From a virus, in UHGV virus genome UHGV-0044336: DNA of 49,831 nt; one strand, written 5' to 3'. Positions 42,001 to 45,000 of the stretch are shown here, piece by piece. Each line of letters begins with the position of its first letter. Within the stretch, counting starts at the first letter, position 1. The position numbers were made by a program.

Positions 42001-45000
42001 ATACTTTCAAACTTTTCAGCTTGAACTGGCTGATACCAGTCTAACGACAAAGTTGATGCGAGTATACCAGCTCTAATTATGTTCGATGTAATCGCACCGA
42101 CATCCTTTTCTGTTGCCCAAGCAATGATTTCTCCTCGAGCATTGAGTTCTGCGCCTTCTTTAAGCAGTAATTGTCGTATCTCATCAAGTCGTTTTTTGGT
42201 AAGCGAGATCCCTCTTGCCTCCATATTCATTAAGGCATCGCATCTGTCACTAACTAAATACCTACCATTGACTTCACGGATAAAGGCACCGACATGCTCT
42301 CCATCATCACAGTAAGTGAATGGACTGATAATTCTCAAGGTCTTGCCTATTGGATGGCATTCGAAACCTAGTTGTGAGATCACTGTTGAGCACATCATAT
42401 TCCAAACCCCATTTGCCCCGACTCATCTTCAAGCGGTAAAGGTATTCTCCCAGAGTAAGTTATGTTCAGATGTTTACAGAAGTAATTCCAATACCCTACC
42501 AGGTCATCTGGGTTTATGTCATCTTCGATTGGAAACGCTATTCTATCACTATAGTATCCAGCTTCTTCATAGTATACATGGTAGTGAGCACCGTAAATGA
42601 TATCTTGGTACTTCGGATGATCGACCTTGTAACTATTCGTGTGTTTGTCAAAGTGATAGGTATCTACCGCGAAAACCCTCTTGTTATGATAGAAAGCAAT
42701 AATATTTATTTTAGGGTAAGAAATCGGGTCATCAGGTTCTGAATCCTGATCTGGTTTCCATTTCAGTTCAAACTTTAGCCCTTGTATAGGTATACAATCC
42801 TCATCCAAGGGGATGATATGGGCTTGTAGCCACATATCAGAGCGACTTGGTTTCTGTTTCCATTTAACGCCAGAAAAGTTAACTATTTTTTTTACAATAA
42901 AGTACTTTATCAACTTCTACTTGGCTTGGCTGATAATCATCTATTTTTGCCAATGTTTACCGCCCTGTAAATTGTAGATAAAAGTGGTTTCATCACCCAA
43001 ACGTCTCTTCAGGCCATTGGCTGGCGATAACTTTCCCCACAACGGAACAACTCTCATTGCATGGGATCATTGGGTATTGTGGGTTTAGTGGCTGTAGAAA
43101 CACCTGACCGCTATCCCTGATCAGTTTCTTGAAGGTAAATTCATCACCACCAAGTCTGGCTATGCAGAAATCGCCGGGCTCAACAGCTTGCTCAGGGTCA
43201 ACCAGAATTAACATCCCGTCAGGAAAGCTGGGTTTGGAACCTGTTGGTGCGGTCATTGAGTTACCTTCAACCTCAAGCCAGAATGCAGAGTCACTGGCTT
43301 TTTTGGTTGTGCTTACCAATCTCTCCGCATCGCCTTTGGTAAAGGTTCTGAGTTCTGGAGAGAACATCCCAGCCTGAACATGAGAAAAAACAGGGTACTC
43401 ATATTGTTTTTTAACTGGGGCCGATGAGTATTCGCCAACAGGTGAAAATGTCCCGTCGTGGTTGAATGATATGTTATCAATACCAAGGTATTTAAACACC
43501 ACACCAATATCACTAAGAGATGGATGACGAGATCCGCGCAACCAGTGTCCAATCCCACCCTGCGTCATACCTAGCTCTTCGGCTAACTTCTCTTGAGTTA
43601 TGCCGAGCTCTTTCATTCTGGATCTAGCCAGTTCATACCATTTCATTTTCATGTCCTTATTATTACGCTCTGTACTGGAACCATCCATGCACAATGTGTA
43701 TTTTTACTTGTATTCGCAAAGTACATATTGTATTTTTTTATTCGTGTTTACTATGGAGGGCATATGAGCAACCTACGAAAATATCGAGAGTCACTGAATA
43801 TCTCTCAAACAACACTTGCTAAGGCAGTTGGATGCACACAGGGAGCTATCGGACATTGGGAATCTGGTCGTCGCTTCCCAGACCTTAAAACATGCCGTGC
43901 TCTTGTTGCGTGCCTAAACAAGTTAGGCGCAAAAGTCAGTCTTGATGACGTGTTCCCGCCGGAACACAAAGCCGCTTAATAAGCGGATCCGCTCTTTGTA
44001 ACAACGGACATTCGTCCTACGTCGCTGAAAAGCGAGTTCCAAGATATCTGACCAACTAAGGCCATATGCGTTTCCACGCATACCTTTCAACTAACTATTC
44101 ACTATTGGAAATCTTAAGAAATGGAAAGAACAAGTTACAGCAAACTATCACAGCGTGACGTTGATCGCGCAGAAACAGATTTACTTATCAATCTGTCAGC
44201 TATTACCCAGCGCGGTCTGGCAAAGATGATTGGCTGTCATGAATCGAAGATAAGCAGAACGGACTGGAGATTTATTGCTTCGGTCTTGTGTGCTTTCGGA
44301 ATGGCATCAGACATCAGTCCGATTAGCAGGGCTTTTAAGTATGCGCTTGATGGACTCACCAATAAAAAACGCCCGGCGGCAACCGAGCGTTCTGAACAAA
44401 TCCAGATGGAATTCTGAGGTCATTACTGGATCAATCCACAGGAGTCATTATGACAAATACAGCAAAAATACTCAACTTCTGCAGAGGTAACTTTGCCAAA
44501 CAGGAGCGTAATGTGGCAGATCTCGATGATGGTTACGCCAGACTATCAAATATGCTGCTTGAGGCTTATTCAGGCGCAGATCTGACCAAGCGACAGTTTA
44601 AAGTGCTGCTTGCCATTCTGCGTAAAACCTATGGATGGAATAAACCAATGGACAGAATCACCGATTCTCAACTTAGCGAGATTACAAAGTTACCCGTCAA
44701 ACGGTGCAATGAAGCCAAGTTAGAACTCGTCAGAATGAATATTATCAAGCAGCAAGGCGGCATGTTTGGACCAAATAAAAACATCTCAGAATGGTGTATC
44801 CCTCAAAACGAGGGAAAATCCCCTAAAACGAGGGATAAAACATCCCTCAAATTGGGGGATTGCTATCCCTCAAAACAGGGGGACACAAAAGACACTATTA
44901 CAAAAGAAAAAAGAAAAGATTATTCGTCAGAGAATTCTGGCGAATCCTCTGACCAGCCAGAAAACGACCTTTCTGTGGTGAAACCGGATGCTGCAATTCA

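Follow-up and report, generated by a model that had tools for sequence, protein, structure and literature searches.

The best-described relatives of the locus considered here are the immunity regions of VT2-Sakai (Sp5), the Shiga toxin 1 (Stx1)-converting phage and Stx2 phage II (strain Morioka V526), deposited as AP000422, AP005153 and AP005154. VT2-Sakai has been used as the representative of the Eru3 replication type among Stx phages, whose CI repressors are diverse (PMC8951638). In a later paper (PMC10742460, 2023), Fattah et al. 2000 (Genes Genet Syst 75:223) are cited for a homology between the VT2-Sakai and lambda CI repressors that is high in the C-terminal part and low in the N-terminal part, and the core of the lambda-mosaic observation described below had therefore already been published. 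The region at positions 42993-44417 of the virus genome UHGV-0044336 (the whole analysed stretch of 49,831 nt is referred to as the window) can be assigned, with a probability of roughly 0.9, to the lysis/lysogeny control region of a phage-21-like temperate coliphage carrying the known VT2-Sakai (Sp5) immunity type. That immunity type has already been sequenced and published, and it is not a novel hybrid.

Positions 42900-44500, including the junction with the cargo genes downstream of cI, were 100% identical in the phages ev017, ev207, PhiR57_1 and PhiR63_2 and in many E. coli chromosomes (for example Nissle 1917, ATCC 25922 and ATCC 11775), and 96.6% identical to VT2-Sakai, the Stx1-converting phage and Stx2 phage II. 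A preliminary description of this DNA had presented the region as a hybrid, but it is not a novel one: the whole block occurs unchanged in deposited phages and in many E. coli genomes, and its immunity type is that of VT2-Sakai. In the VT2-Sakai type, the cI-OR-cro-nutR-cII body (OR and OL being the right and left operator regions) is 98-100% identical at the DNA level, with six putative operators in the same places, and N, nutL and OL are 93% identical. The CI proteins of the window and VT2-Sakai are one residue apart (S/G near the C-terminus) with identical N-terminal domains, and the Cro proteins match at 71/71 residues, so the two phages share the DNA-binding domains of repressor and Cro as well as the OR and OL operator sites. 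VT2-Sakai differs in having an HK022-type cII tail, an extra small open reading frame (ORF) and HK022-like O and P genes, whereas the window has a lambda-type cII tail, oop and O/P/ren; the cargo downstream of cI also differs. Relative to ev017, ev207, PhiR57_1, PhiR63_2 and the Nissle-type prophages, only the annotation differs (cI start codon and length of N).

The preliminary description had further placed the region on a largely lambda-like backbone, but the phage is closer to phage 21. The whole window is ~99.9% identical to ev017 and PhiR57_1 (~99.9-100% over the parts each shares), its late genes (head and tail) share 99.6% identity with those of phage 21, and ev017 is classified as a Jouyvirus (the genus of phage 21), not a Lambdavirus, which together indicate a 21-like backbone with lambda-type replication genes. 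No Stx-phage backbone emerged from the searches run, in which the best whole-length matches were 21-like phages with sitABCD. This iron/manganese transporter operon is cargo of the window phage.

The interval 42993-44417 has the stop codons of cI and cII as its exact ends. It contains ORFs for cI (42993..43652, minus strand, 219 aa from the ATG at 43652), cro (43764..43979, plus strand, 71 aa) and cII (44121..44417, plus strand, 98 aa), with the O gene starting at 44450; to the left of cI lie two cargo genes, a terminator (41642..41621), OL, nutL and the N gene. Pfam identifies CI as HTH_3 plus Peptidase_S24, Cro as HTH_3 and CII as Phage_CII. The window resembles lambda in gene order and orientation and in having three plus three 17-bp operators in mirror arrangement.

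Against the lambda reference (NC_001416, positions 34500-40500), only three DNA matches were found: 41521-41642 (90%), in the t_imm-like terminator region just downstream of rexB; 42992-43403 (93.4%, 412 nt), at the 3′ end of cI; and 44355-46264 (97.1%), from the end of cII through oop, O, P and ren. The stretch 43404-44354, which carries the CI N-terminal domain, OR, Cro and the CII body, is unrelated to lambda DNA, as is OL. In 30-nt windows of a three-way alignment, identity to lambda was 0.97 at 43361-43390 and 0.40 at 43421-43450, and it rose from 0.20 at 44323-44352 to 0.93 at 44353-44382, which places the base-level joints at 43403|43404 and 44354|44355. The first lies in the inter-domain linker of CI, just upstream of the YEYPVF codons, and the second lies 20 codons from the end of cII and 9 nt beyond the oop 3′ end (oop being placed through homology with phage 434). 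Both of the crossovers that had been proposed, inside cI and inside cII, are thus visible relative to lambda, although the one in cII exists only against lambda and 434.

Several of the other lambda comparisons made in the preliminary description were borne out, some with a qualification. The CI DNA-binding domain, Cro, the CII N-terminus and the operators do differ from those of lambda, the last 20 CII residues (L79-F98) are identical at 20/20 positions, and the CI C-terminal domain, said to be lambda-identical, is nearly so as protein (135/136) but not as DNA (93.4%); the oop/O start region, described in the same terms, falls within the match that begins at 44355 at 97.1% DNA identity. The CI N-terminal domain is only ~30% identical to that of lambda; it has no N-terminal arm and reaches the joint 17 residues earlier. 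Cro is unrelated in sequence, the operators differ in sequence and spacing, the CII body is another allele, and rexAB is replaced by two other genes. None of the marks of the lambda immunity group (lambda, HK97, HK106 and others), namely a lambda-type CI N-terminal domain, Cro and operators, was found here; the window sites instead fit AAGTAC-N5-GTAyTA. The region is mosaic relative to lambda, but its immunity type is a known one.

The lambda-type segment of cI (42996..43403, minus strand) encodes the linker and C-terminal domain, residues Y84-G219, and matches lambda Y101-G236 at 135/136 residues, the sole change corresponding to lambda W129L. At the DNA level 29/414 positions differ, and the codon differences comprise 26 that are synonymous, one that is non-synonymous and the junction codon. 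Nucleotide identity of this segment is 93.4% to lambda, 94.3% to HK97, ~98% to Sakai and 93% to vB_EcoP-720R6 (720R6). To survey the joint, a 200-nt probe (43304-43503) was compared with 5426 complete E. coli genomes, counting matches over at least 80% of its length. The joint was present in 776 of them (14%, about one in seven), in two sequence classes that were at least 99% and ~93% identical to the probe. Every partial match sampled covered only the half encoding the C-terminal domain, and the three that were fetched proved to be lambda-immunity prophages with a 714-nt cI, a 201-nt cro and a 294-nt cII. Wherever the Sakai-type N-terminal domain occurred in the sample, it was followed by the lambda-type C-terminal domain with an unchanged joint, and the lambda-type C-terminal domain serves two immunity types in the sampled genomes.

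These data bear directly on whether the region arose by recent exchanges, inside cI and cII, between lambda or a close relative and a heteroimmune phage. Such an origin would account for the sharp steps in identity at 43403/43404 and 44354/44355 and for O, P and ren being 97% identical to lambda, yet it fits poorly with a C-terminal segment that retains only 93.4% DNA identity through almost entirely synonymous differences, with the same cI joint in VT2-Sakai, 720R6 and 776 complete E. coli genomes, with nutR-cII-O-P-ren forming one colinear block in 933W, H-19B and 21, and with complete identity of the entire region among unrelated isolates. Neither the parent-identical flanks nor the private joints of laboratory hybrids such as lambda imm434 and imm21 were seen. 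The constant joint in the sample and the synonymous divergence from lambda effectively rule out a recent lambda hybrid, to which we attach very little probability; the combination of modules in the window is a widespread standing one.

The N-terminal DNA-binding domain of CI, with its helix-turn-helix (HTH), is encoded by 43404..43652 (minus strand, residues 1-83). Among the nine reference phages against which the module map was built, it matched only the Sakai-type phages and 720R6 at the DNA level, with no match in lambda, 434, 21, HK022, 933W or H-19B. A word-indexed protein search with residues 1-83 gave 12 matches of 46-144 aa, all below full CI length. Homology to the N-terminal domain of the lambda repressor is distant (E 4.5e-4, ~30% identity), while the whole protein matches the full-length lambda repressor structure 3bdn at E 2.6e-96. 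The Cro encoded beside it is a paralogue of this domain (35% identical, E 9e-13) with a near-identical recognition helix (TQGAIGHW in Cro, TQGGIGHW in CI) and no significant similarity to lambda Cro, which fits both proteins reading the same sites, as in the phage 434 design. The 434 repressor and Cro are paralogous HTH domains that read the same operators, and the likeness of the window to that design lies in the paralogy and the near-identical helices; its cI and cro have no detectable DNA similarity to those of 434, which matches the window only from 44355 rightwards.

That the CI N-terminal domain, OR and cro diversified from those of lambda in place, by selection and without recombination, is just as improbable as a recent hybrid. 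Among natural phage repressors of solved structure, that of lambda gives the best match to the N-terminal domain and shares a similar ELG.xQExxAxxxGMxQxGxG motif, and HMMER aligns CI to the lambda repressor from residue 11, as diversification in place would predict. However, DNA identity drops from ~95% to background within a few bases, beside a C-terminal domain whose low synonymous divergence means that point mutation had no time to erase the similarity of the DNA next to it. The window Cro, an HTH_3 paralogue of CI that is unrelated to lambda Cro, the missing arm and the shorter N-terminal part also speak against divergence in place. An old recombinational joint in the VT2-Sakai immunity type therefore remains the better account of the step in cI.

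The second step, in cII, has a different standing. The nutR region (43990..44036, plus strand), read from the sequence, comprises a boxA-like CGCTCTTT at 43990-43997 and a boxB-like hairpin TCGCTGAAAAGCGA at 44022-44035, and AP000422 has a putative nutR annotation at the corresponding position. The boxB-like hairpin of nutL (TGGCTGAAAAGCCA, 41308-41321, minus strand) has the same GAAAA loop as that of nutR, and the two stems differ by a compensatory G-C to C-G swap. The cII body (residues 1-78, 44121..44354, plus strand) is of the HK022/21/933W/H-19B type and shows no significant similarity to lambda CII, although CII carries the Phage_CII domain (PF05269, E 7e-34). As in other phage CII activators, this domain is accompanied by a TTGC-N6-TTGC-like repeat at the -35 of PRE: a predicted CII-binding repeat TTGC-N6-TTGT, read from the sequence at 44143..44130 (minus strand) and lying at the -35 of the proposed PRE, fits the ttgynnnnnnttgy annotated in 434 and 21 and agrees with the CII site in AP000422. 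The lambda-type tail L79-F98 (LTNKKRPAATERSEQIQMEF; 44355..44417, plus strand) begins the lambda-like block of cII tail, oop, O, P and ren. The oop antisense RNA (44364..44450, minus strand), with its terminator at 44393..44366 and promoter po at 44475..44447, was placed by a scan and by transfer of coordinates from the annotation of phage 434, which is 97% identical at oop. An Rfam scan of 40800-44700 returned no family for oop or the nut sites, and gave one sub-threshold chance match.

933W (94.9%) and H-19B (94.0%) run colinear with the window from nutR to ren (43989-46400), and phage 21 (95.5%) does so from 44089 through O. The CII of phage 21 combines the window-type body with a lambda-like tail, the two meeting at the same ...YALDG|LT... 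position as in the window. In all three phages cI, OR and cro are unrelated to those of the window, and 933W and H-19B have CII tails of a third type. Given this colinearity, the cII ‘crossover’ is an allele boundary that appears only against lambda and 434 (and, for the tail, against Sakai). The inclusion of cII in the immunity specificity, as first proposed, fails in both directions: 720R6 combines the cI, OR and cro of the window with a lambda-type cII, and many heteroimmune phages share the window's cII body. HK97, which we take to be lambda-immune, likewise has an HK022-type cII together with a cI and cro that match lambda in length and sequence (the 5′ half of cI included), so cII lies outside the specificity module. 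On these alignments the right edge of that module is at ~43980-43988, in the gap between cro and nutR, and not inside cII.

The module map thus has four parts. Module 1 (42996-43403), the cI linker and C-terminal domain, is 93-94% identical to lambda and HK97, ~98% to Sakai and 93% to 720R6. Module 2 (43404-43979), comprising the CI N-terminal domain, OR and cro, is 99-100% identical to the Sakai-type phages and 93% to 720R6, with nothing similar in 434, 21, HK022, 933W, H-19B or lambda. Module 3 (43989-44354), nutR and the cII body, is 92-95% identical to 933W, H-19B, Min27, BP-4795, HK97, HK022, 21 and other heteroimmune phages, and module 4 (44355 onwards), with the cII tail, oop, O, P and ren, is 97% identical to lambda and 434. 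OL (41380-41490) has the same distribution as module 2, and on this map the immunity-specific core is confined to 43404-43979 plus OL.

Within that core, six 17-bp operators are predicted. In OR these are OR3 (TATTACGCTCTGTACTG, 43661..43677), overlapping the -10 and spacer of the proposed PRM; OR2 (ATGCACAATGTGTATTT, 43687..43703), abutting the proposed PRM -35; and OR1 (AAGTACATATTGTATTT, 43719..43735), which overlaps the proposed PR -10, contains ATGTACTT on the minus strand and has one mismatch to AAGTAC-N5-GTACTT. In OL they are OL1 (TAGTACGATATGTACTT, 41400..41416), which also contains ATGTACTT, OL2 (CAATACAATTTGTTGTA, 41425..41441) and OL3 (TATAACGCTTTGTATTT, 41458..41474). OR1 and OL1 match at 15/17 positions and OR3 and OL3 at 14/17, and all six fit AAGTAC-N5-GTAyTA with invariant A5, C6, G12, T13 and T16. 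A degenerate pattern built from these sites gave 22 matches in the window against 8.65 expected, eight of which cover the six sites in two ~75-bp spans that are the sole clusters. Among the window, Sakai and 720R6, differing positions amount to 4% in the half-sites, 10% in the central five bases and 32% in the spacers (half-site versus spacer, Fisher p ~8e-7). AP000422 carries ‘putative’ operator annotations at all six positions. Sakai and the window do not differ in the three OR 17-mers, and most of their differences in OL affect spacers or degenerate positions. Lambda-like 24-bp spacing would call for a fourth operator in the interval from OR2 to OR1; one was sought, but no sequence fits the half-site pattern and the stretch is poorly conserved in 720R6.

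The preliminary description had noted an element shared by the two control regions and absent from lambda, and this stands: ATGTACTTT-N(0-15)-ATACAA has exactly two matches in the window, at 41409-41432 (plus strand) and 43708-43726 (minus strand), with none in 100 shuffles, and the 9-mer ATGTACTTT does not occur in lambda 34500-40500 even with one mismatch allowed. The two copies are inverted relative to each other and differ in their gap (9 nt in OL, 4 nt in OR). In both, the element begins with the right half-site of O1, but its ATACAA plays different roles, being the left half-site of OL2 in OL and, on the other strand, the proposed PR -35 TTGTAT in OR, which reads TTGCAT in 720R6. Two further copies of ATGTACTTT occur at 35730-35738 (minus strand) and 37279-37287 (plus strand), giving four in the window against 0.29 expected; the former shares 11 nt (GATATGTACTT) with OL1. 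As both lie inside coding ORFs of the early-left region and lack a second half-site, they were treated as chance occurrences.

The proposed PR (-35 TTGTAT at 43708-43713, -10 TATTTT at 43731-43736, plus strand) and PRM (-35 TGGATG at 43687..43682, -10 AATAAT at 43664..43659, minus strand) follow the ‘putative’ annotation of AP000422 together with the sequence. With the PRM start predicted near 43652, the cI mRNA would have no leader, as is the case for lambda, and the ATG at 43652 would suit such a transcript. Annotated cI starts differ, being at 43646 in VT2-Sakai and 720R6 and at 43688 in ev017 and PhiR57_1; the latter ATG falls inside OR2, and the predicted PRM start favours 43652 or 43646 over it.

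Taken together, the operators make a distinct immunity plausible. Several points weigh against the overall reading of the region. The operator pattern was derived from the very sites that it then finds and is partly circular, and the operators and promoters in the VT2-Sakai record are all labelled ‘putative’. No experiments on the CI, Cro or operators of the window were found. A consensus promoter scan that did detect po and the oop and t_imm terminators failed to detect PR, PL or PRM, which consequently depend on the AP000422 annotation and on geometry, and the start of cI is ambiguous (43652, 43646 or 43688). The centre-to-centre distances between operators (32 and 26 bp in OR, 25 and 33 bp in OL) are unlike the 24 and 23 bp of lambda, so lambda-style cooperativity between OR1 and OR2 is not assured despite the lambda-type C-terminal domain. 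Finally, cross-immunity between VT2-Sakai and lambda, attributed to Fattah et al. 2000 in PMC10742460, sits badly with a simple picture of separate specificities.

This last report raises the alternative that a repressor of the window type and lambda CI cross-react, owing to their common C-terminal domain and recognition helices that are similar in part, making the phages at least partly homoimmune. The same paper reports that operator oligonucleotides of VT2-Sakai are shifted by lambda CI at 3.7-6.4 uM, whereas lambda CI binds its own sites at 0.2-3.1 uM under identical conditions. These single-site electrophoretic mobility shift assays are in the micromolar range, and in the text of PMC10742460 consulted they are given with no non-operator control, such that the shifts may approach non-specific binding. 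When the sequences themselves are compared, the operator half-sites share A2, A5 and C6 with the lambda half-site TATCACC. The lambda operator consensus is TATCACCGCCAGTGGTA, which AAGTAC-N5-GTAyTA resembles at few positions, and the N-terminal domains are only ~30% identical. On balance, shared immunity with lambda seems unlikely, though clearly less so than either a recent hybrid or divergence in place, and the separate VT2-Sakai immunity type is preferred.

A working scheme for this VT2-Sakai-type switch can be proposed from homology and anatomy. CI dimers would bind the three OR and three OL operators through the N-terminal HTH, shutting PR and PL; CI at OR2, beside a weak PRM, probably activates PRM, whereas CI at OR3 would repress it, and Cro would read the same operators and drive lytic growth. 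The lambda-type linker and C-terminal domain would provide dimerisation and pairwise cooperativity. CI has the architecture of an S24 self-cleaving repressor, with HTH_3 at residues 11-58 (E 1.9e-10) followed by Peptidase_S24 at residues 87-209 (E 1.1e-28), an Ala-Gly scissile bond (VQA94-G95MF) and a Ser/Lys dyad (S132 in GNSMT, K175 in FTFKKL) that correspond to lambda A111-G112, S149 and K192. Because the cI joint lies upstream of the YEYPVF codons, both the scissile bond and the dyad belong to the lambda-type part, and given the near-identity of this domain to that of lambda CI, RecA-stimulated self-cleavage at Ala94-Gly95 by Ser132/Lys175 should occur. CII would activate PRE at TTGC-N6-TTGT. 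The tail of lambda CII is an FtsH degradation signal, and by analogy the lambda-type tail of the window CII, which oop antisense RNA overlaps, may act in the same way.

The patchwork itself probably reflects old recombination at short conserved boundary sequences. These would lie in the cI linker (just before the YEYPVF codons), at the cI stop codon, between cro and nutR, and at the cII tail/oop terminator. Four modules would reassort in this manner: the rex-slot cargo, the CI C-terminal domain, the CI N-terminal domain-OR-cro segment, and nutR-cII with the replication genes. As a discovery the region carries little weight, being textbook lambdoid modular mosaicism, but it remains useful to have mapped, to the base, four modules that reassort independently, together with the sequences at their boundaries.

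The occurrence of one oligomerisation domain in two common immunity types also makes repressor cross-talk testable. In cells carrying both types, CI of the window type and lambda CI may form mixed dimers or cooperative oligomers through their 99% identical domain, a tentative suggestion that we consider rather doubtful. Were it true, two heteroimmune prophages would be linked to each other in stability, induction threshold or superinfection immunity, and the mixed oligomers could underlie the reported cross-immunity of VT2-Sakai and lambda. Such cross-talk could then be common in nature, as 14% of complete E. coli genomes carry the window-type allele and others carry lambda-immunity prophages.

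In the rex slot, two cargo genes (41646..42913, minus strand) encode a 172-aa DUF6978-like protein and a 250-aa DUF1828 protein, which by position would be co-transcribed with cI. Compared with the PADLOC candidate defence system PDC-M24, component B matched over its full length (4.7e-10) and component A weakly (4.2e-4), while in PHROGs both genes fall into families of unknown function. The cassette is exactly bounded by the cI stop codon on one side and, on the other, by the lambda homology at 41521-41642, which ends at the rexB stop beside the t_imm-like terminator (41621-41642). In 933W and H-19B, a ~25-nt relic of the lambda-type cI 3′ end (CCCAAACGTCTCTTCAGGCCACTGG) lies directly downstream of their own unrelated cI, at 3527-3552 of the 933W sequence and 1890-1919 of the H-19B sequence, equivalent to window positions 42991-43020. 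This relic looks like a conserved boundary sequence or the scar of a past module exchange, and fits the cI 3′ end acting as a recombination boundary.

The map also allows a correction to the literature on E. coli Nissle 1917, in which a ‘phage repressor’ gene maps to cII. Quantitative PCR primers for ‘phage repressor pr / EcN_1294’ (PMC5987069) map to 44318-44335 and 44358-44376, and the cloning primers for EcN_1294 from the same study map to 44075-44093 and 44424-44444, so that the clone (44075-44444) contains cII and most of oop but not cI. With this clone, lambda and Stx phages were reported to plate 215- to 243-fold less well (PMC5987069), which is therefore an effect of a cII clone. RAST-type annotations of near-identical phages and prophages label cII ‘Phage repressor’, and later papers have continued to name Nissle EcN_1294 a repressor.

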